A program made the position numbers and the translations under genes. DNA of 64,000 nucleotides from the NCBI GenBank assembly GCA_964627085.1, contig CAZVIP010000001.1, positions 3,654 through 67,653 of the forward strand, written 5' to 3'. This DNA is from an uncultured Candidatus Saccharibacteria bacterium (lineage in GTDB: Bacteria > Patescibacteriota > Minisyncoccia > Phycocordibacterales > CAIZLB01). Positions 3,695 through 54,596 of the stretch are shown here, piece after piece (within the stretch, counting starts at the first letter, position 1; the number at the start of each line of letters is the position of its first letter). The notes under the pieces were generated by a model. That model worked only from the letters and a program-made list of their open reading frames with translations. It had not been told where the DNA came from and ran no database searches.

Positions 3695-4891
3695 TTACGC
3701 GACGATCTTTGTAACGACACCAGCACCTACAGTTTTACCACCTTCTCGAATTGCAAGTCGCTGCATTTCTTCAAGGGCAATTGGAGCTACAAGTTTAACT
3801 TTGAAAGTTACTGTATCTCCAGGCATAACCATTTCTACACCTTCCTTCAATGTTACTTCACCAGTTACGTCTGTTGTTCGAACGTAGAACTGTGGCTTGT
3901 AACCTGAGAAGAATGGAGTGTGTCGACCGCCTTCTTCTTTCTTCAAGATATATACTTCAGCTTCGAAATCTGTATGAGGTTTTACTGAACCTGGCTTACA
4001 GAGAACTTGTCCTCGAGTAAGATCTTCTTTTTTAGCACCTCGGAGGAGAATACCAGCGTTGTCACCGGCCTGTCCTTCCTGAAGCTGCTTGTTGAACATT
4101 TCAATACCTGTAACAGTAGTTGAAGTTGTGTCCTTGAGACCTACGATTTCGATAGTCTCACCTACCTTGATGATACCCTTTTCGATTTTACCTGTAACTA
4201 CAGTTCCTCGTCCTTCGATAGAGAAAATATCTTCGATAGGCATAAGGAATGGTTTGTCAGTTTCTCGAACTGGAAGTGGAATGTAAGTATCAAGAGCTTC
4301 TGCAAGTTCTAGAACTTTCTTAGACCATTCATCGTCTGTACCTGTTGCTTCGAGAGCTTTGAGAGCTGAACCTCGAATAACTGGAGCGTTGTCACCGTCA
4401 AATCCGTTCTTTGAAAGAAGTTCTCGGATTTCAGCTTCAACTAGGTCAAGCATATCTGCATCATCTACCATGTCACACTTGTTCATGAATACGATGATCT
4501 TTGGAACTCCTACCTGCTTAGCCAAGAGAACGTGTTCTCGTGTCTGTGGCATAGGTCCGTCAGTTGCGGCTACCACGAGGATAGCACCGTCCATCTGAGC
4601 AGCACCAGTAATCATGTTCTTGATGTAGTCGGCGTGACCTGGGGCATCAATGTGAGCATAGTGTCTCGCATTTGTAGCGTACTCGTTGTGAGAAAGTGAG
4701 ATAGTAATACCTCGAGCCTTTTCTTCAGGAGCCTTGTCGATAGCATCAACACCTTTAATTGTTGCCTGCATACCAGCTCGGCTGAGTACGTTAAGAATAG
4801 CCGCTGTAAGAGTTGTCTTACCGTGGTCTACGTGTCCAATTGTACCTACGTTAACGTGAGGTTTTGATCGGTCAAAAGCTTCTGCTGCCAT
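3695..4891 (-). CDS. tuf: Elongation factor Tu
   Basis: 398 aa. [22 protein letters not shown] and full EF-Tu architecture. Confidence 0.98.
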
Positions 4892-5284
4892 ATTTTTTTG
4901 CTTTAATTAATATTTATCGATAAATATATTTGTAAATAAACTTGTCTGCATTGCTTCAAGGTATGTTTAACTTAAAAAGCCAATAAATAAAGAAAAACGT
5001 TATTTATGGCGATGTTAAGGTAAAGAAACCGGACGGGTATCCATTGACTATTCAGTTGTAGTGCAATTGGGTCAGAGGTATGTGTGTATCCTGGCTACGA
5101 TATGTGTTTGACACATTTGTTTACCTGGAATTTCCTGTGGCTCTATAGGGCCGCAAGATGCATACATTCACGAGCAATTGAATTAACTTGAGTGTCGTTT
5201 CTTTGGTTTTAAAAAACCAAGAAGATACAAGACAAAAACGCAATAAAGCGTTGTAGAGATAGTATCATATTTATGGTAGTTGTC

Positions 5285-5327
5285 AAAAAAACAGACCACC
5301 TCGGTGATCTGTTTTTTTGACTTGTAT
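5285..5327 (-). terminator. Intrinsic terminator downstream of fusA
   Basis: Hairpin cagaccacc-tcg-gtgatctg flanked by A/T runs, 35 bp beyond the fusA stop. Confidence 0.6.
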
Positions 5328-5359
5328 ATTAAGACTAGAATATAGCCTATATAGACCTA

Positions 5360-7516
5360 TTACGCAGTAACCTTTCGAGATTCAACGATAGTCTTTTCTA
5401 CGTTTGGAGGAACGATATCGTAGTGATCGAATTCCATAGTCATAGAACCTCGTCCCTGTGTCATAGATCGGATATCAGTTGTATATCCAAACATTTCTGA
5501 AAGCGGAACCATGGCTCGGATGACTCGGAGTCCCTGACCTCTTTCTTCCATACCTTCAATCTGACCTCGCTTAGATGAAAGTGAACCTGTAACGTCACCC
5601 ATAAACTGTTCTGGCATTACACATTCTACCTTCATGATTGGCTCGAGGATAACAGGTCGTGCTCGCTTAGCAGCTGCCTGGAAAGCCTGAGAACCAGCAA
5701 TCTTGTACGCAATTTCAGATGAGTCAACATCGTGGTATGAACCGAAAGTAAGTTCACAAGACACATTTGTAAGTGTGAATCCTGCAACAATACCTCTGTC
5801 CATAGCCTCTTTGACACCCTTTTCAACTGCAGGGATAAATTCAACTGGAATAACACCTCCCTTGATAGAGTCGATAAATTCGAATCCTTCTTCTCGGTGT
5901 ACGTTCTTTGGAATTTTCGCACCTTCCTCAAGTTTTTCGAGTGGCTTGATAGTGATCTTTACGTGACCGTACTGACCCTTACCTCCAGACTGCTTGATGT
6001 ATTTGTATTCTTCTTCTGCAGAGCCTGTGATTGTTTCTCGGTATGCTACCTGTGGCTTACCTACGTTTGCTTCTACATTAAATTCTCGCTTCATTCGGTC
6101 AACCATAATTTCAAGGTGGAGTTCTCCCATACCTGAAACAATAGTTTCTCCTGTTTCAGTATTTGAAGATACTCGGAAAGTTGGATCTTCATCCATAAGT
6201 TTCTTGAGAGCCATACCCATCTTTTCCTGATCAGCCTTTGTTTTTGGCTCGATCTTGAGGGACACTACCGGTTCTGCGAATTTGATTGGATCGAGAACAA
6301 TTGGATTAGCTTCATCACAGAAAGTATGTGAAGTTTTTGCATCCTTGAGACCTACAGCAGCTGCAATTTCACCAGCGTATACTTTCTTTACTTCTTCTCG
6401 CTTGTTAGCCTGAAGTCGCACGATTCGTCCTAGTCTTTCCTTTGTGCCAGTTGTTGAGTTATAAAGGTATGAACCAGCTTCGACTGTACCTGAATACACA
6501 CGGAAGAATGTAAGCTGACCTACGAATGGGTCGTTTTGTAGTTTGAAAGCAAGTGCAGCAAACGGTTCTGTATCAGAAGCCTTTCGCTCAATTTCTTCAC
6601 CGTTGTCTGGGTTAAGACCCTTAACTGGCGGTACATCGAGTGGGCATGGAAGATAGTCAACTACAGCATCGAGTACGAGCTGTACACCCTTGTTTTTAAG
6701 AGCAGTACCTGTGAATACTGGGAATACTTTGTTTGCAATAACACCTTTTCGCATAGCAACCTTGATCTGATCAACACTGAAATCAGTCTTACCCTCTAGA
6801 TATTCATTCATCATTGATTCATCGAATTCACATGCCTTTTCAACAAGTTCAGCTCGGTATTTTTCAGCATCAGCCTTCATATCTTCTGGAACTTCACCTT
6901 CTACTACCTGTGAACCCATCTCCCCTTCGAATCGGTATGACTTCATCTTGATGAGGTCTACTACACCTTCGAAATCTGACTCAGCACCAATTGGAAGCTG
7001 CATTCGGATAGCATTTTTGTTGAGTCTATCGAGGATAGATGCATATGATCGCTCAAATGAGGCACCCATACGGTCGAGCTTGTTGATGAAACAAATTCGA
7101 GGTACATGATACTTGTCAGCTTGTCGCCATACTGTTTCAGACTGTGGCTCTACACCGGCTACACCGTCAAATACCACTACTCCACCATCGAGTACTTTGA
7201 GTGATCGCTCTACTTCTACGGTAAAGTCTACGTGACCTGGTGTGTCGATAATGTTAAATCTCTGCATCTTTGAGATATCCTTACCCATATATGTTGGGTT
7301 CCAGAAACAAGTAATCGCAGCGGCTGTGATAGTAATACCACGCTCCTTTTCCTGTTCCATCCAGTCAGTTACAGCTTCACCTTCGTGTACTTCACCAATC
7401 TTGTGGCTCATACCTGTATAGTAAAGAACGCGCTCAGACGTTGTAGTCTTACCCGCATCGATGTGGGCGATAATACCGAAGTTTCGTACTCTTTCTAGTG
7501 GATAGTCTCTATTCAT
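5360..7516 (-). CDS. fusA: Elongation factor G
   Basis: 718 aa. [17 protein letters not shown] and EF-G domains II-V. Confidence 0.97.
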
Positions 7517-7722
7517 ATAATGATTAATTTTTTATTAAAATAATTTGCTTTTCTCAGAACTGTGATTATTATTGCTTGATTATTAAGTAATCACTAGGTG
7601 ACTACGAAACATAATTTCAGCAGAAACTATATAGACGAGCGATAATAATCACAATCCTGAATGTTTGCTTAAATTATCATGTATTTTGCTAATTTGCAAT
7701 GTTTTTCAGGTAGAATAATTGA

Positions 7723-7757
7723 AAAAACAGACCATTTGCAGGGTCTGTTTTTTCTAT
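7723..7757 (-). terminator. Intrinsic terminator after the inserted Cys-rich protein gene
   Basis: Hairpin aacagaccatttgcagggtctgtt followed by a T-run on the coding (minus) orientation. Confidence 0.6.
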
Positions 7758-7829
7758 TATTTAGCCTTTTTTCATCCTTTGGATATACAAGTGGGTACTT
7801 TAGCGTAGATTTATCTACCCGGACGACAA

Positions 7830-9446
7830 TTAATGCTCGATAATTGCTGGTAGTGCACCGCATTTATTGGGCACAGAGCTAGATTGTAGGTCAATCCACT
7901 CCCCAGCAGTATCTAGCTTATATTGCTGCGTACAGGTCAGTGTATGTGATCCGATAGGTAAATTATATGGAGGATCTATGTTTATAATCTTGTTTGAAGG
8001 GACCGAAACCGAACTGCCAGCACTCTTCATCTCACAAATAACCCTTGAATCTACAGATCCCTCTGGTCTTTGCGCTTCAGTCATCTCATTTGTCTGCCAA
8101 TACCCACCACAGAGCGTAGTTGCTTGGTTTTTAGGTATTTCACCTGGTTTTAGTTTAAAATAATCAATTACCTTTGAGCAGGTATAACACGTACCATTAC
8201 TGTTTATACAATACTCCCTCTGGTCAACGACAGTTCCACTATCTGATAGCCGACAATCACAATTCTCACTCTCTGGGATACATTTATCCTTTGAAGTACA
8301 GAAGTATTCACCAGTCATACATCTTGCCTTGCATAAAGCAGGGTCTATTGCATCTGGGTTTTTGCATTGCCATCTCCAACTACTATATGCAGGGCTAAAA
8401 TCCCAGGTTGGCTCACCGTCATCCAAAAGCCCAAGTACACTACCCACTGCACATAACTGATTACCTGTAATATATTCACCCGCTGGAGTAGTTGTTGATA
8501 TAGAACCTCCTGCTGGTAGCTGATAATCAAGTGATTCCCTGTAAATTTCAGTACCTGCAGCCTGGCCACAATATGATTTTGGACATTCGTTCATATTACT
8601 CACGCACATATAACTTGTCATTGGCATCTGATCACCGCAATAGAATTGACCAGCATTGCAATCAACTCTTTCAAAAGGACATGATGCTTTTACTGTAGTG
8701 TTACCTTTTGTTGCTGACACTTCTACAACGGCTGAGTTGGTCGCATTGTAATAAGTATGTTCATAAGTTGGATTTCCAGGATTATCAACACCTTCGACAT
8801 TCCAGACAAAACTAAAATCTTCCGTTGGTGTAGTAGTACCCGATATTACAGCTGTGAACTGTACAGGTTCACCAAGCACACCAGTACCTGGATCGACAGT
8901 GCATGATAGGCTTGCATCACTAATTCTGACTGCATCACACTCGACTGTACCGCCACCAAAAATTCCTGCACATGCCCATTCATATGAATCATCATTTATT
9001 CTAAGATCTATTGCAGATCCGACCCGACATAAATTTGTTGCAGGAAAAGATGTTCGTGGTGTTGTTGTAGCTGAACCACACTTGCCATTTATACCCCCAA
9101 CAATAGTTGCGCTATACCTATGTACGTTTCCACAACCCAAACCCCATTCCATTGAAAGTGCAGCTGGCCCAATTCGATCAATGGTCTCACTCTGGATTAA
9201 TGCACAGCCCCATGACGGCCATGAGTTCTTTCCACACACTCTTGTATACGTCGCGCTCCCCGAAACATTGTATGTGATATTATCTTTCACCACAGTGTAC
9301 TGACATGAATGTGTATAACGACATTCTTTTGGTTTCTTTTTTGAACCCCTCGCTTCAGCTGTATTAATAGAAAATACAGTTGTGAAAAAGAGCACAAACA
9401 GCGCGAGTATAAAAACACGAGACAGTTTATTGTATTTCATATTCAT
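7830..9446 (-). CDS. Secreted Cys-rich protein with a PKD-like domain (hypothetical)
   Basis: 538 aa with an N-terminal signal/TM segment and more than 40 Cys. Central segment FTAVISG...FSFVWNVEGVDNPGNPTYEHTYYNATNSAVVEVSATKGN fits the PKD/Ig-like pattern. Confidence 0.7.
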   Translation of the reverse strand: MNMKYNKLSRVFILALFVLFFTTVFSINTAEARGSKKKPKECRYTHSCQYTVVKDNITYNVSGSATYTRVCGKNSWPSWGCALIQSETIDRIGPAALSMEWGLGCGNVHRYSATIVGGINGKCGSATTTPRTSFPATNLCRVGSAIDLRINDDSYEWACAGIFGGGTVECDAVRISDASLSCTVDPGTGVLGEPVQFTAVISGTTTPTEDFSFVWNVEGVDNPGNPTYEHTYYNATNSAVVEVSATKGNTTVKASCPFERVDCNAGQFYCGDQMPMTSYMCVSNMNECPKSYCGQAAGTEIYRESLDYQLPAGGSISTTTPAGEYITGNQLCAVGSVLGLLDDGEPTWDFSPAYSSWRWQCKNPDAIDPALCKARCMTGEYFCTSKDKCIPESENCDCRLSDSGTVVDQREYCINSNGTCYTCSKVIDYFKLKPGEIPKNQATTLCGGYWQTNEMTEAQRPEGSVDSRVICEMKSAGSSVSVPSNKIINIDPPYNLPIGSHTLTCTQQYKLDTAGEWIDLQSSSVPNKCGALPAIIEH

Positions 9447-9447
9447 A

Positions 9448-10491
9448 TTAGTTTTTCTTTATTGTAATTTTACTATTAATATATGAACGCATACTCTCTT
9501 TCTCTTTTTTTCCAAGTGTAATATCTTGGTCAATTGCTTCCAATGCCTTCTTTTTCCATTCATCACCTGCCTTTTTGTCACCAGTAATTATCTCAACCTC
9601 AGAGAGAAGTAGGTAGGCACTCGCTTGGTTTGGGTTGATTGCAATTGCTTTCTTTGCATCTGCACGGACGCTCTCAATCAATTGCTTAATTTCTGCATCT
9701 GTCTCCATGTCTAACGCTGTTGAAAGCTCTACCTTTGCTTTCATCACCCACGCTTGTGGCATAGTCTCATCAAGTGATACCGATCTTTGGATTTCATCTA
9801 GCGCCTGATCAATCTCCTCTTCATTAAAAGAAATATACGAAAGCACTTGATACCCTTCAGCCTTCATTCGATTACTAGTAGATGCAGAGATGAGACTATC
9901 CACTGTCTTGCGGGCGAGCTCGAATTTATTTTGTCTCACATATAATCGCGCAAGATTTAACAAAGCATGATCATTTGAGGGATCAATTTTTAGTGCCTGA
10001 TTATAAAGCTGCTCTGCTTTTTCTAAATCACCTTGCAAATCATATGCATGTCCATTATTACTATGCGCTTGAGAATTTCTAGGATTGAGTTCGATCGCCT
10101 TTTCATACATACCATGTGCATCATCATATTTTTCTTGAATCTCAAAAGCATATCCTTTTATTCGATATGCCTCACTATTTTTTGGATCTATTGCAAGCAC
10201 CTTATCAGCTGTTTCTATTGCAAGCACAGCACCACCCTCTTCTTTGAATGTTACACTGCCCTTTTGTGCATATGTCGCAGCGAGCAATAAGAGTGCGTTT
10301 ACATTGTTTTTATCTTTTTCTAGGTTTTGGAGCGACTTATCAATAGCACCATCTAAATTCCCTGTATCATAATCATTTACCACATTTATTACTGCTTTTT
10401 CTCTATTATATTTATTTAGGTAAAAGAGCCCTACAGACATTCCGGCAACTACTACAATTGTTAAAATTGTGATGAGAATTTTTTTCTTCAT
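9448..10491 (-). CDS. TPR-repeat protein with N-terminal membrane anchor
   Basis: Several 34-aa TPR-like repeats (AYxxKGxA...YxKAIELNP). Start placed at MKKKILITIL (10491); the longer ORF to 10599 lacks an RBS-like context. Stop abuts the start of the downstream Cys-rich gene. Confidence 0.7.
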   Translation of the reverse strand: MKKKILITILTIVVVAGMSVGLFYLNKYNREKAVINVVNDYDTGNLDGAIDKSLQNLEKDKNNVNALLLLAATYAQKGSVTFKEEGGAVLAIETADKVLAIDPKNSEAYRIKGYAFEIQEKYDDAHGMYEKAIELNPRNSQAHSNNGHAYDLQGDLEKAEQLYNQALKIDPSNDHALLNLARLYVRQNKFELARKTVDSLISASTSNRMKAEGYQVLSYISFNEEEIDQALDEIQRSVSLDETMPQAWVMKAKVELSTALDMETDAEIKQLIESVRADAKKAIAINPNQASAYLLLSEVEIITGDKKAGDEWKKKALEAIDQDITLGKKEKESMRSYINSKITIKKN

Positions 10492-10629
10492 ATTGAAATA
10501 TATTATACACTCAAAAACACAAAACACCGCAAGTGATGCGGTGTTTTGTGAACATTGTGTGAATAATGTTTTTGTAACCTTTGCTCTATTCGAGCACATG
10601 GTTGCAAGGAGTGCTTTTTGTAAAGTAAA

Positions 10630-11100
10630 TTACCAAGCGAAGTGTGCGAACGCTTTGTTCGCATCAGCCATCTTATGTGTATTTTCCTTTTTCTTAACTG
10701 CTTCACCTTCATTCTTTGAAGCGGCGAGAATTTCATTAGCAAGCTTGAGGTGCATTGGCTGACCCTTTTTTGATCGTGCAGCTGCGATAATCCAGTTCAT
10801 AGATAGATAAGCCTTTCGTTCTGGTCTTACTTCTCGTGGAACCTGATAGTTCGCGCCTCCGACTCGTCTTGAACGCACTTCCACTGAAGGAGCCGCATTC
10901 TTGAGAGCTGTATCGAAAACTTCAAGAGGATTTTCAGTCTTTGCTAGATCTTTGATTACATCGAGCATGTCGTAAACGACTCTTGATGCAGTCACCTTCT
11001 TTCCATCGAGCATGACGTGGTTAATGAATTTCGCCAAAGAATCAGAGTTATACTTGATATCTGGCTTTAATGTGAGCTTTCGCTTTATTTTTCTTCGCAT
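10630..11100 (-). CDS. rpsG: 30S ribosomal protein S7
   Basis: 156 aa with S7 signature regions (VEVRSRRVGGANYQVP). Confidence 0.95.
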   Translation of the reverse strand: MRRKIKRKLTLKPDIKYNSDSLAKFINHVMLDGKKVTASRVVYDMLDVIKDLAKTENPLEVFDTALKNAAPSVEVRSRRVGGANYQVPREVRPERKAYLSMNWIIAAARSKKGQPMHLKLANEILAASKNEGEAVKKKENTHKMADANKAFAHFAW

Positions 11101-11172: not shown

Positions 11173-11592
11173 TTATTTCTTCGCTTCTTTTGGACGTTTT
11201 GTACCGTATGCAGATCGCTCCTTTCGTCGCTTGTCTACTCCAGCACAGTCGAGCTTACCTCGGACGATTGTGTATCTAAGACCTACGTCTTTTACACGAC
11301 CACCTCGGAGAAGTACTACTGAGTGCTCTTGTAGGTTGTGACCCATACCTGGGATATATGCAGTAACTTCATAACCGTTTGTAAGTCTTACTCGAGCAAT
11401 CTTTCGAACCGCTGAGTTAGGCTTCTTTGGAGTCTTTGTAGTTACCTTTGTACATACACCTCGCTTGAATGGAGAGTCATACTTTACAGGTCTGTTCAAA
11501 AGATGGTTGAAACCACGAGTTAAAGCCACAGCTTTTGATTTTCGCTTGGCCTTAAATCGATTCTTTTTTACTAATTGGTTTAATGTTGGCAT
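11173..11592 (-). CDS. rpsL: 30S ribosomal protein S12
   Basis: 139 aa. PTLNQL...PKKPNSA(L/V)RK...VRLTNG and highly conserved S12 core. Confidence 0.97.
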
Positions 11593-50966: not shown

Positions 50967-51037
50967 TGCGGGATAAGAGAATCGAACTCTTGTCTACTGC
51001 TTGGAAGGCAGTCATTCTACCACTAAACCAATCCCGC
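50967..51037 (-). tRNA. tRNA-Gly (anticodon TCC)
   Basis: Hand-folded cloverleaf: acceptor GCGGGAT/ATCCCGC, anticodon stem ACTGC/GCAGT, loop CTTCCAA, T-arm GAGTTCGATTCTC. No encoded CCA. Confidence 0.8.
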
Positions 51038-51185
51038 ATTTATTGTGTTTTTGTTTCCACCCTTTATCAGGGCCCTATAGAGACAAACGACATACTCACC
51101 TATATCCAAACATGTTTAAGGTAAGCACAGCAATACTATATCAAAGAGATGCAGGAAATACAATTTCGTATATACTTTACCTATA

Positions 51186-52451
51186 ATGAATGGCCAAAAG
51201 AAATATATTGTCTTAGCTCTTTTTTCCATATCAATACTTGGATCAGTTGTAATTTACACGATCTTTGCCACACAAAATGCTGGTGAAAATTCAAAATACG
51301 CTTATTTTTGGCCAAAAAAGACAGAACAGCTCGCAACGATTTCATCAAAAGTTAATTCAATTGGTGATAAACTGCGAAAGCACAACCTCTTTTTCTCAAT
51401 CCCTAAACCGCTATTGCAGATAAATGCACCTGAATTCAAGATAATTAACCTCAACCAACCCAAAACATTACCTGAAAGTACACCTGCCGTGAGCCAAACC
51501 CCATCACCTGTGCCTTCACAAAAAAACCAAGCAAATACAACGCAAAACCCCATAAACATTCTTCCTGCACCAAAAACATCAGTTGCTGATATTATCAACT
51601 CGATACCAAACAATAACAATATTAATAACACACCGGAAAACAGCGTTGTTAATATACTTTGTAAAATCACCAACGGTAATACCACTCAAAATATTTCAAG
51701 CTCAGGAATCCTTATTTCAAATTCTGGCCTTATTTTGACAAATGCCCACGTTGCAGTGCATCCATTCTTGGACACATATACCGATTCAGCGGTTTCATGT
51801 GAAGCAAGGTCTGGATCCCCTGCTGTGAGCCCTCAAAAAGCTTCTCTTGTGTATATTTCACCGCAGTGGACATCAAGACATGCTGGTGAAATTTATGGTA
51901 ATTTTTCTGCCGATACAGGCGAAGATGATTTTGCCATCTTAAAGACATCACCAATCACTGGTCAGAGCAAAAATCAAAAAATATCACTACGAAACAAGGA
52001 TAATACCCTCTTATACGGTACACATACTGGTAACATCAATAACTTAGTTATTGGTCAGAAAATAAAGCTAATTGGATACCCAATTAACACCCAAAACACA
52101 CTATCACTCTATAAAAAGACCGAGGATTTGAATATTAACCATTTAACTAGCCTCGGAAATGAAAACACTAAGGATATTATTGAGACCTCGACGAGTATTA
52201 TTGGGAAAAGCGGCGCATCAGGAGGTGCAATTATTGATGCCCAGAACTACTTGGTAGGATTAGTAGCAAATATTGCCCCATCATCTGCAAATAACACCTA
52301 TGTAAGGGCACTCACCCTAGATCATATATACAAAACTCTTGAATCAGAGACTGGAATACAGTTTGACGAACTAATTTCTTCAGATGGCAGCAAGCTCAAG
52401 AAGTATTTTGAAGCCAACTATTTAAACAGCATTAAAAACAACCTTAGATAG
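51186..52451 (+). CDS. Membrane-anchored trypsin-like (S1 family) serine protease
   Basis: N-terminal TM. Catalytic context LTNAHV (His), DFAIL (Asp), GKSGASGGAI (Ser). Confidence 0.7.
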   Translation: MNGQKKYIVLALFSISILGSVVIYTIFATQNAGENSKYAYFWPKKTEQLATISSKVNSIGDKLRKHNLFFSIPKPLLQINAPEFKIINLNQPKTLPESTPAVSQTPSPVPSQKNQANTTQNPINILPAPKTSVADIINSIPNNNNINNTPENSVVNILCKITNGNTTQNISSSGILISNSGLILTNAHVAVHPFLDTYTDSAVSCEARSGSPAVSPQKASLVYISPQWTSRHAGEIYGNFSADTGEDDFAILKTSPITGQSKNQKISLRNKDNTLLYGTHTGNINNLVIGQKIKLIGYPINTQNTLSLYKKTEDLNINHLTSLGNENTKDIIETSTSIIGKSGASGGAIIDAQNYLVGLVANIAPSSANNTYVRALTLDHIYKTLESETGIQFDELISSDGSKLKKYFEANYLNSIKNNLR

Positions 52452-52782
52452 ACTGTCGGTGTAGGTCTTTTGCTCGTTTTGCGATTACTGCAACTACAGC
52501 ATCGATATCATCAATATCCCTTATTTTATTTGGTTTTTGCTCACCACATTTCAGGCATTTGTGTAAAACCGTGTAGGCCTTCCCTGTTGTCCCTTCTATT
52601 CTATAAGGCTCCATGAGGCCACAGCATTCATTTGCCCTGTCACCAGGGTTAATGTCAACATGTTTGCACCATAAGCACTTTGGACAGTGATTTGTATATC
52701 CATCCCCTACTACAAAAAAACCACATTTTTCACATGTAAAGTCCTCTTTTTTTCTAGTAAACCTTTTTGCTTGTAGTGTCAT
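52444..52782 (-). CDS. RNHCP-domain zinc-ribbon protein
   Basis: FTCEKCG...GYTNHCPKCLWCKH...HKCLKCG: Cys clusters and the xNHCP motif of the RNHCP family. Confidence 0.65.
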   Translation of the reverse strand: MTLQAKRFTRKKEDFTCEKCGFFVVGDGYTNHCPKCLWCKHVDINPGDRANECCGLMEPYRIEGTTGKAYTVLHKCLKCGEQKPNKIRDIDDIDAVVAVIAKRAKDLHRQSI

Positions 52783-52881
52783 ATATGCGAACCTGTGGTC
52801 AAAATAATGAGAAACCAGTATATAAGTTTGTGTAGGAAGTGTTAGCTATTTACTAACCAACCACACAATCTTAACTTCTTG

Positions 52882-52954
52882 TCGGGGCGCCGGGATTCGA
52901 ACCCGGAGTCACGTGTTCCCAAAACACGTATGTTAGCCGTTACACCACGCCCCG
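52882..52954 (-). tRNA. tRNA-Pro (anticodon TGG)
   Basis: Hand-folded: acceptor CGGGGCG/CGCCCCG, anticodon stem CGTGT/ACACG, loop TTTGGGA with G37, T-arm CCGGGTTCGAATCCCGG. Confidence 0.8.
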
Positions 52955-53034
52955 ATTTGTATTTGAGCATTATCAGATACATTACCTTGAAAACAAGGTA
53001 ACTTTCGATAGCTTAGCATAGTTTTTTTTATATC

Positions 53035-53814
53035 TCAATTAAATTGAATAATATCAAGCTTTTCAAAAGATACAGATGCTGAAAACCTACACCTTTTCGA
53101 AACCACTCGCCCAGGCGGAGTGGAGCCTGGCAAGGCTTTAAACTCAATATACATAAGATATACTAGAGCACATACTTCCCCGCCTTTCAATACCTCTTTT
53201 TTGAATTTTTTAGACGAAATGTGCAAGGCGACAGATCTTTTTATTTTTTTTGATTTCAAAAATGTCATCGGCAAAAATTCAGAGCAGTTACACATGTAAC
53301 TTTTTGTAGTGGGTTTTGATTCTGTGGCTTTATACATGAATACTTTGGCATTATCGACACGACCAATCTGACCCACTATCCCCTCGTCTGTCAAACATGA
53401 TTCCCATACTTCAGCTGTGCGGTCAAGCCTGCCGGCCTTGCAATCATCAGCGTTCCCGGGTTCTGTCAAACAAAAACAGAACCTTGACCTAACCTCAAAC
53501 ACAAAAATATCAGTGAATGTGGCACGTGAAACGTCATTTTCACGTGTAACCGAGGTATACAAGAGGTCAATTTCACCATTTCTACCGACGTGTATATTCG
53601 ACCCGAGGAGGTTGAGCTGGGGTAGGTTTCTTGCTATCCAGTATTGGGCATATTTCTCACCATAACTGCCCACATTCTTTTTGCCTGATAATCTATCATT
53701 GTCATAAATCCCGGAGTAGGGGCCCGGCACTGATATTTCATTTATATGTCTATTGCTTGTCATTTGATACTCGGTTAGACAGTCATGTTCGGCATGACCT
53801 TTTAGCTGGTGCAC
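53035..53814 (-). CDS. Hypothetical protein with YraN/UPF0102-like (PD-(D/E)xK) endonuclease-like N-terminal region
   Basis: Segment EKYAQYWIARNL...GRNGEIDLLY...IFVFEVRSR resembles the YraN signature (E...GEIDLI...VFVEVKxR). The remaining approximately 150 aa have no family. The gene boundaries are uncertain. Confidence 0.35.
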   Translation of the reverse strand: MHQLKGHAEHDCLTEYQMTSNRHINEISVPGPYSGIYDNDRLSGKKNVGSYGEKYAQYWIARNLPQLNLLGSNIHVGRNGEIDLLYTSVTRENDVSRATFTDIFVFEVRSRFCFCLTEPGNADDCKAGRLDRTAEVWESCLTDEGIVGQIGRVDNAKVFMYKATESKPTTKSYMCNCSEFLPMTFLKSKKIKRSVALHISSKKFKKEVLKGGEVCALVYLMYIEFKALPGSTPPGRVVSKRCRFSASVSFEKLDIIQFN

Positions 53815-54391
53815 CAGCTGAGTTAGGCTACCAAGTGGCTGATTAAATTCTGATCAACTTTGCGTATATTTTGAATGAAAATTGAAAAAGAAAAAATGGA
53901 GGGGGCAAAGATGATAATAGGTGAGGGTATCAGGAGAGAGAAGCGAAGAAAAAAAAAGGGGGGGGCGACAAGGGAGAAAGAAGAAGCGACGTGGAAAGGG
54001 TAGTGACGATGTACTTACCCAAGACTTGTTACACATGAGACATCCACTAGTGCAAAGTCGGGTCCGAAAGGTAGAGAGTTATCGACAAAAAGAAGTCTGA
54101 GGGGCAGTAGGTCACCCTGTACTTGAATCCAAGTTGTCGTCAGGTGAGGTAAAAGGCCAGAAAGGAGAAAAGCGCTAGGATAGCCCAAATCAGTCAAAAA
54201 CCAACACTTTTTTCAACCAGAAACACCCTCTAAAAGACTGTCTTTTATCAACATATCCACTGAGTTATCCACAGTTTTGTCTTTTTCAGACTATTCACAA
54301 CTGACCTTTATATTCAGTATATGGCTATAAACAAGGTTATATTGAAATAGTTAGGAAATCAGTCACAAAGCAAATCAAAGTCACAATTTTG

Positions 54392-54462
54392 TGCGGGTAG
54401 GGAGAATCGAACTCCCGTCTCGTCCTTGGCAAGGACGCATTCTACCACTAAACCATACCCGC
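54392..54462 (-). tRNA. tRNA-Gly (anticodon GCC)
   Basis: Hand-folded: acceptor GCGGGTA/TACCCGC, anticodon stem CGTCC/GGACG, loop TTGCCAA, T-arm GGGAGTTCGATTCTCCC. Confidence 0.8.
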
Positions 54463-54524
54463 ATGTTTTATATTTTATACATTCACAATAAATATTGCAA
54501 AAGCATACCTGACCTTTGTCATTG

Positions 54525-54596
54525 TGCACCCGCCAGGATTCGAACCTGGAATAACGGTTCCGAAGACCGTTGTGATATCCATTTCACCACGGGTGC
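54525..54596 (-). tRNA. tRNA-Arg (anticodon TCG)
   Basis: Hand-folded: acceptor GCACCCG/CGGGTGC, anticodon stem ACGGT/ACCGT, loop CTTCGGA, T-arm CCAGGTTCGAATCCTGG. Confidence 0.75.

Follow-up and report, generated by a model that had tools for sequence, protein, structure and literature searches.

An inherited gene pair for a TPR protein and a cysteine-rich secreted protein between rpsG and fusA in a Paceibacteria genome

Gene layout and the two encoded proteins

The window analysed here is a 64,000-nucleotide stretch of contig CAZVIP010000001.1, from an uncultured bacterium registered as Candidatus Saccharibacteria. Its minus strand carries, in this order, rpsL, rpsG, an open reading frame for a tetratricopeptide repeat (TPR) protein, a 538-amino-acid open reading frame for a cysteine-rich secreted protein, fusA, tuf and rpsJ. 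We studied the two genes that separate rpsG from fusA. A preliminary description of this DNA had read them as a cassette inserted into a conserved operon. The comparison with related genomes shows instead an inherited and fast-evolving pair. It belongs to a wider two-gene module and appears to have transcription signals of its own. All features of this locus lie on the minus strand.

The TPR gene (9448-10491) encodes 347 amino acids, and the gene of its cysteine-rich partner occupies 7830-9446. The stop codon of the first (9450-9448) and the ATG of the second (9446) are 1 nt apart, in agreement with the tight coupling reported before. On the upstream side are rpsL (11173-11592) and rpsG (10630-11100; ribosomal protein S7, Pfam Ribosomal_S7, E=2e-55). 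On the downstream side, fusA (5360-7516) encodes elongation factor G (EF-G; Pfam GTP_EFTU, EFG_III, EFG_IV and EFG_C), and tuf lies at 3695-4891. The preliminary description placed two genes between the end of rpsG at 10630 and the start of fusA at 7516. Both are real, and Pfam identifies S7, EF-G and the TPR protein. Twelve contigs, assembled independently from several samples and sequencing runs, carry the identical locus, which excludes an assembly artefact. The left edge that had been given to the pair, 7669, does not stand. It was set by a 64-amino-acid open reading frame (7669-7863) that overlaps the 3' end of the cysteine-rich gene and the terminator. This frame has no family match in Pfam and is probably spurious.

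The TPR gene most likely starts at the ATG at 10491 (MKKKILITIL...). This start is common to the orthologues, to one gene caller and to protein cluster P0156. The longest open reading frame, taken earlier as the gene, begins at 10599 and gives 383 amino acids in some gene callers. Its extension (10492-10599) is not conserved and reads through the terminator hairpin of rpsG (10550-10518).

Pfam TPR_17, TPR_11, TPR_19 and other models match the TPR protein with E values down to 3e-27. The scores are 93 bits for TPR_17 (cut-off 24), 74 bits for TPR_11 and 73 bits for TPR_19. The N-terminus presents KKK and then a single hydrophobic helix. These features uphold the earlier assignment as a membrane-anchored TPR protein. 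The AlphaFold2 model, built from 61 sequences, has a mean predicted local distance difference test (pLDDT) of 95.3. It consists of a long helix at residues 2-42 and 16 further helices (17 in total). The long helix is predicted to be a membrane anchor and stalk, followed by about eight TPR hairpins, which would be located outside the cytoplasm. The closest solved folds are OGT, APC6 and Tom70/71 (Foldseek E 1e-8 to 1e-14, TM-score up to 0.68). Tom70/71, APC6-Cdc26 and OGT enclose extended peptides or C-terminal tails. However, they are eukaryotic and cytosolic, and the likeness is that of a generic repeat fold only.

The positions conserved specifically in this family are Y74, G78-S79, E117, Y129, H148, Y163, H175, N179 and R182. 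The family also has a C-terminal motif, D-I-T-L-G (D-x-D-I-T-L-G in the module definition given below). The protein contains no cysteine. It thus lacks a lipobox and is not a lipoprotein. All the named bacterial TPR families compared (PilW, PrsT, Tgl, LapB and CcmH/CycH) remain far below their cut-offs. PilW (TIGR02521) gives 64.4 bits against 154 (E=1e-17), and the lipobox cysteine is missing. PrsT (TIGR02917) gives 89 bits against 312, with 347 amino acids where about 900 are expected. The partner also ends without the PEP motif, transmembrane helix and Arg tail of a PrsT-type context. Tgl gives 35 bits against 225, and the CcmH/CycH TPR domain (PF23914, TPR_CcmH_CycH) 33.5 bits against 42 (E=5e-8). 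No Ccm genes are found in the neighbourhood of the window locus.

The 538-amino-acid partner has 31 cysteines, and not more than 40 as was first reported. Six orthologues with only 42-48% identity conserve every one of them, in agreement with a role in structural disulfides. The complete protein matches no Pfam or NCBIfam family above threshold. Its N-terminus, MNMKYNKLSRVFILALFVLFFTTVFSINTAEA followed by RG, has the n-h-c layout and AxA site of a Sec signal peptide (residues 1-33, 9348-9446, predicted cleavage between AEA and R). It can be parsed as MNMKYNKLSR-VFILALFVLFFTTVFSI-NTAEA before that R. The layout was judged by eye and without a predictor, and it agrees with the secreted product proposed before. 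Residues 7-26 are helical in the AlphaFold2 model. The orthologues also have the signal-peptide region; the exception is P0003, for which a shorter N-terminus was called.

Four regions can be delimited in the mature part. The alignment of partners defines an N-terminal domain at residues 40-116 (9099-9329), which we call CGNxH. Its invariant residues are C48, C81, P94 and C105-G-N, and H109 is nearly invariant. It has no match in PDB or Pfam, and Pfam searches with members of the domain gave chance-level matches only. A word-index search with this domain alone found no matches and no shared 5-mers.

The second region is a four-cysteine CG module at residues 121-172 (8931-9086). A hidden Markov model (HMM) built from the repeats of P0054 and P0021 recognizes it with E=4e-12. 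The pattern in the window is CGxxxG..P..LC..G...W.W.C.G.GG..C.A. It is one copy of a widespread tandem repeat of about 58 amino acids, whose consensus is G.CG...G..f...P...LC..G......W.W.C.G..GG....C.A. Searched with a profile, 1.84 billion representative proteins gave 2280 matches, most of them in this region. More than 2000 proteins have only the CG module in common with the cysteine-rich protein, and they carry up to about 40 tandem copies. The same search added only two full-length relatives. The repeat is without a model in Pfam and NCBIfam.

The third region, at residues 178-258 (8673-8915), corresponds to an immunoglobulin (Ig)-like beta-sandwich. With a profile of six orthologues, residues 171-248 show similarity to the Ig-like domains of Hoc from phage T4 (E=2.3e-6, best domain 1.1e-4). 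Beta strands are predicted at 179-255 with pLDDT 55-77, in a model of moderate quality only. A PKD-like fold had been proposed for this protein. Nevertheless, Pfam PKD (PF00801) reaches only 13.1 bits at residues 182-236 (E=0.1; gathering threshold 23.5), and a generic Ig-like domain alone is supported. The likeness to Hoc is restricted to the profile level and to a domain that makes up about 15% of the protein. Searches against PHROGs, PADLOC and, by tblastn, phage genomes found no phage or defence link.

The fourth region is the C-terminal domain at residues 434-538 (7833-8147), with four conserved cysteines, also defined from the alignment of partners. It ends in C-x3-P-x3-E-x-COOH (KCGALPAIIEH in the window) and has no match in PDB or Pfam.

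Predicted transcription units of the str cluster

The promoters and terminators described here are all predictions from sequence. An intrinsic-terminator-like hairpin follows rpsG at 10518-10550. Its stem has 14 perfect pairs (7 G-C) and a 5-nt loop, a TTTTT run follows, and the folding energy is -22.3 kcal/mol. This hairpin was overlooked in the preliminary description. An analogous strong hairpin with a T-run is found 3' of rpsG in L085 and L010. An extended -10 box, TGTATAAT, lies at 10502-10509, 10 nt upstream of the TPR ATG. The box TGTATAAT or GGTATAAT is present 6-10 nt 5' of this ATG in all seven str-linked loci (window, L085, L010, L087, L006, L084 and L091). Given this short distance, a leaderless or near-leaderless mRNA is predicted for the pair. 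The terminator-like hairpin that would close the unit, earlier placed at 7723-7757, was found at 7721-7754. Its 20-nt arms are 95% complementary, and in sequence it is bidirectional. Transcription of the pair together with rpsL and rpsG had been suggested before. The strong terminator after rpsG in the window, L085 and L010 and the conserved box before the TPR gene speak against it, and separate transcription is predicted.

The fusA gene was expected to need its own promoter within 7517-7720, and a candidate was found there at 7671-7699. It has a -35 element TTGCAA (7699-7694), a 17-nt spacer with TG and a -10 element TAATTT (7676-7671). The motif ATTGCAAA-N14-TGATAATTTA is invariant in 7/7 related loci, whatever gene precedes fusA. 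Between this promoter and fusA there is a structured 5' leader (7554-7660), in which 35-nt arms enclose two hairpins. Its folding energy is -48.8 kcal/mol (z=-6.6), and none of 200 shuffled sequences was as stable. The leader belongs to no Rfam family. It may be a regulatory leader for EF-G. The fusA leaders of the orthologues instead open with a hairpin and a U-run (GCACACGACTTTTTCTCAAAGTCGGTGCTTTT), an attenuator-like arrangement.

The fusA-tuf spacer (4892-5359) has 468 nt. It contains a predicted terminator at about 5311-5292 that overlaps the tuf promoter, TTGACA-16-TACTAT with an upstream TG (5286-5259). The tuf promoter (TTGACA/TGATACTAT) and the fusA terminator are both kept in L010. 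Downstream of this promoter there is a leader of about 360 nt (z=-2.9), in which several blocks, such as ACCTCTGACCC and TGGATACCCGTCC..GTTTCTTTA, are shared with L010. It may represent a long tuf leader or a small RNA. The Rfam scan of the intergenic regions gave nothing real. Its matches to MIR851, IS128 and SraB were far below threshold and reflect the hairpins.

With predicted terminators after rpsG, the cysteine-rich gene and fusA, and predicted promoters before the TPR gene, fusA and tuf, the cluster looks cut into four units: rpsL-rpsG, the TPR-Cys pair, fusA and tuf. Compared with the str operon of E. coli and Bacillus (rpsL-rpsG-fusA-tuf), the window keeps the order and the strand of the four genes. 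It differs in this predicted division, and the corresponding junctions are usually interrupted in 67 related Paceibacteria. At the level of prediction, the locus illustrates leaderless promoters and terminator-promoter junctions in clear form. Such signals would show how the ribosomal cluster of a reduced genome can be divided into units transcribed independently.

Inheritance of the pair and the wider module

The pair is located directly upstream of fusA in six of seven distinct relatives whose EF-G is at least 91% identical (L006, L010, L084, L085, L087 and L091). Every full-length homologue of the cysteine-rich protein directly follows a TPR orthologue, just upstream of fusA. Across the genomes with the pair, identity to the window copy is 91-95% for EF-G, 91-92% for S12 (where it is on the contig) and 81-85% for S7. 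For the TPR protein it is 46-58%, and for the cysteine-rich protein 42-48%. The same site in six of seven close relatives, despite the divergence of both proteins, indicates that the pair is ancestral to the sub-clade. L005 is the only genome at this level of EF-G identity without the pair, and it has a 1076-amino-acid secreted protein there instead. The guanine-cytosine content of the interval is normal. The flanking repeats that could be insertion scars amount to chance 14-nt matches inside coding regions. The hallmarks of a mobile or phage-derived cassette that were sought (flanking repeats, mobility genes, compositional anomaly and phage homologues) are all absent. The preliminary description had itself named the presence of both genes at this position in related genomes as refuting an insertion, and the synteny comparison found just that. 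In this Paceibacteria sub-clade the pair is inherited and fast-evolving, not a recent insertion.

The linkage of rpsG and fusA had been considered among the most conserved in bacteria. We scanned species-representative genomes with S7 and obtained 80 loci, with S7 identity of at most 86%. They are labelled as Candidate Phyla Radiation (CPR; Patescibacteria) or unclassified. The named ones are mostly of Paceibacteria or Parcubacteria type, and many have automatic "Saccharibacteria" titles. The bacterium of the window is itself a member of the Paceibacteria, within CPR. The rpsG-fusA gap was measured in 67 loci and has a median of 457 bp, with 33 loci above 500 bp and 25 above 1 kb. For fusA-tuf (44 loci) the median is 2454 bp, with 39 above 500 bp and 32 above 1 kb. 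The genes in these gaps are heterogeneous: large secreted proteins, toxin-antitoxin-like pairs, nucleotidyltransferases, rplJ-rplL and genes of the S10 operon. A crude scan found a terminator 3' of rpsG in 22/33 interrupted loci against 6/30 compact loci. Judged from these sequences, the str cluster is routinely split in related Paceibacteria, and the gap is used freely for extra genes. An insertion that breaks an operon would be an ordinary event in this group, and the pair itself is inherited.

The rpsG-fusA gap is a small island of secreted-protein genes. Proteins of 980-1980 amino acids, also secreted, are encoded directly 3' of rpsG in the close relatives L004 (5658-8609), L005 (10691-13921), L006 (10610-13933) and L084 (1-8704). 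Their C-terminal cysteine-rich modules resemble residues ~330-505 of the window protein. L006, L084 and L091 have a further secreted protein of 317-339 amino acids before fusA. The ribosomal super-cluster is rearranged in Paceibacteria. Between fusA and tuf, L014, L015, L035, L038 and L044 carry rplJ-rplL, and L043 carries a block of the S10 operon (rpsS, rplV, rpsC, rplP and others).

The TPR protein has a larger distribution than its partner in the window. Its orthologue family comprises about 65 clusters, with 33-59% identity over the full length and 340-390 amino acids. In eight loci selected only for long contigs, a gene for a secreted cysteine-containing protein always adjoins the TPR gene. 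It lies 5-10 bp downstream in L091 and L094-L098, and 3 and 47 bp upstream in L092 and L093. Seven of these eight neighbourhoods are unrelated to ribosomal genes (enolase, gyrB, topA, recG and others). A metagenome scan with the alignment of the cysteine-rich protein found only two new loci, L089 and L090. There the TPR gene is divergent from a 400-424-amino-acid protein that shares only the N-terminal ~80 residues. Between fusA and rplJ, L014 and L015 carry a shortened form of the pair. All loci examined (18/18) have a partner gene next to the TPR gene, in three arrangements (TPR-partner, partner-TPR and divergent). This adjacency spans at least five genomic contexts and TPR identities down to 33%.

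The common features of the partners lie at their ends. The CGNxH domain occurs in 13 of 19 (Jackhmmer) and the C-terminal tail motif in 15 of 19; each one has at least one of the two. Their middle parts vary and consist of CG modules, Ig-like domains, cysteine knots and Pro/Thr linkers. We define the module as a TPR orthologue of about 350 amino acids, with an N-terminal transmembrane helix and a C-terminal D-x-D-I-T-L-G motif, and an adjacent gene for a secreted protein that has the CGNxH N-domain and/or the C-x3-P-x3-E-x end. This definition holds in 18/18 loci, and the window pair presents all its features. This comparison shows that the pair is part of a wider, unannotated two-gene module. 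L097 has two tandem TPR-partner pairs (5001-7246 and 8686-11098) with an Nramp transporter gene between them, so the module can be duplicated. A Peptidase_C39_2 gene directly upstream of one pair and a sortase gene two genes downstream of another (L095 4183-4968; L098 8640-9299) are isolated cases, inconsistent across loci. In the literature we found no account of the module or of the splitting of the str cluster in CPR bacteria; the search was noisy and is not proof of novelty.

Candidate functions of the pair

The best reading of these sequences is a surface TPR receptor or chaperone with a variable extracellular partner. More specifically, we consider it slightly more probable than its negation that the pair is an autonomous, inherited operon of the wider module, whose TPR protein retains the partner at the cell surface or assembles it there. 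Transcription of rpsL-rpsG would stop at the strong terminator (10550-10518). The extended -10 promoter TGTATAAT (10509-10502) would start a leaderless or near-leaderless TPR-Cys mRNA, which would end at the 7754-7721 terminator. The fusA gene would be transcribed from its own conserved promoter (7699-7671) through the highly structured leader. The single N-terminal helix would hold the TPR protein on the outer face of the membrane. The TPR superhelix might then bind the constant parts of the partner, the CGNxH domain and/or the ...P-x3-E-x tail, and this binding would retain or assemble the partner at the surface. Its fast-evolving, disulfide-bonded middle (CG module, Ig-like domain and cysteine knots) would face outward as the binding part. 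Such a mechanism would fit an ultra-small episymbiotic bacterium.

Several points weigh against this surface-display reading. A peptide-binding groove made up of the conserved TPR residues (Y, H, N, R and DITLG) is putative. The N-domain HMM misses L094, L095, L097 and L098, and the C-terminal tail is absent from L089, L090, L092 and L093. As neither hallmark of the partners is universal, any single common binding epitope is hypothetical. The AlphaFold2 model of the cysteine-rich protein is poor (pLDDT 44, four sequences), which leaves its folds beyond the Ig-like part tentative. Some read-through from rpsG is possible. Finally, the linkage with fusA occurs in two arrangements (between rpsG and fusA, and between fusA and rplJ in L014 and L015) and could reflect some tie to the expression of translation genes.

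The main rival shares the binding and differs in its purpose. In it, the TPR protein is a maturation factor like CcmI/CycH or NrfG that holds a terminal segment of the partner during cysteine oxidation or cofactor addition, and the partner is then released. The TPR domains of NrfG and CcmI recognize C-terminal segments of their apocytochrome clients. The window pair resembles these systems in its N-terminal anchor and extracytoplasmic TPR, encoded with a secreted, cysteine-containing client that has a conserved C-terminal segment. The tight and conserved gene pair, a partner extremely rich in cysteines that are each invariant, and its conserved extreme tail would all suit a chaperone. The three invariant cysteines and nearly invariant histidine of the N-domain could be a cofactor or metal site, and Pfam TPR_CcmH_CycH gives its weak match. 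That match, however, falls short of the cut-off and is outscored by many generic TPR models. A CxxCH haem motif is lacking in the partner, and no Ccm or Nrf genes lie nearby. No thiol-oxidoreductase or lyase gene is consistently adjacent in the loci examined, and some partners have few cysteines (three in L092). We regard a released client as possible but doubtful.

A pilus or secretion role is much less probable. The TPR protein would be a factor of the PilW/PilF/TadD/Tgl type, and the cysteine-rich protein a pilus adhesin or a component of a type IV pilus-like system. PilW/PilF, Tgl, TadD and PrsT are envelope TPR proteins of similar size with exported partners, and PilW, Tgl and PrsT are the best-scoring named NCBIfam models. 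One source labels an orthologue "Flp pilus assembly protein TadD", and L096 has a pilM-like gene at a distance of about 4 kb. Nevertheless, the scores are 2-6 times below the cut-offs, and the protein lacks the lipobox cysteine of lipoprotein pilotins. The signal peptide of the partner is of Sec and not prepilin type. No secretin gene is found in any locus examined, the exosortase and PEP-CTERM partner are missing, and pilus genes are absent from 17/18 neighbourhoods. The recent-cassette model, in which an otherwise intact operon was invaded and ribosomal genes are expressed together with a surface factor, is also improbable, if marginally less so than the pilus role. In its favour, both genes lie between rpsG and fusA and share their strand, terminators can leak, and relatives with EF-G identity of 87% or less have no pair at this site, many of them with a compact rpsG-fusA junction. 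Against it stand the shared site in close relatives whose pair proteins are only 42-58% identical, and a synteny that makes the pair older than the split between carrier species. The cassette signs listed above are also missing, a strong terminator and a conserved promoter separate rpsG from the TPR gene, and the junction supposed to be intact is interrupted in half of the 67 related species. Least probable of all, in our judgement, are neighbours without functional link whose adjacency was inherited by chance within one clade. The full-length homologues of the cysteine-rich protein are only a handful, and TPR proteins are abundant and promiscuous. Yet the adjacency extends over all the loci, contexts, arrangements and identities given above.

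A broader form of the surface-display reading can be proposed, and we hold it to be rather unlikely. The module would be an undescribed and fairly widespread two-component system for surface display or sorting in ultra-small bacteria poor in cell wall, and the TPR receptor would read a constant "address" on the partner. The address might be the CGNxH domain of about 80 amino acids, with its three invariant cysteines and histidine, and/or the exact ...C-x3-P-x3-E-x-COOH tail. Such a system would be a functional analogue of sortase/LPXTG or cohesin-dockerin, based on a TPR clamp. For CPR bacteria, a dependence on surface contact with hosts is generally assumed. To our knowledge, almost nothing has been described of how they display or anchor surface proteins. 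A constant address joined to a hypervariable body gives a concrete hypothesis for this process. The conserved gene pair is itself unannotated. Its secreted member has two domains absent from Pfam, NCBIfam and PDB, and one copy of a widespread cysteine repeat without a model in any curated library.

Elsewhere in the window, four tRNA genes lie within 3.7 kb on the minus strand (50967-54596). In the whole stretch, Rfam gives no other match above threshold.

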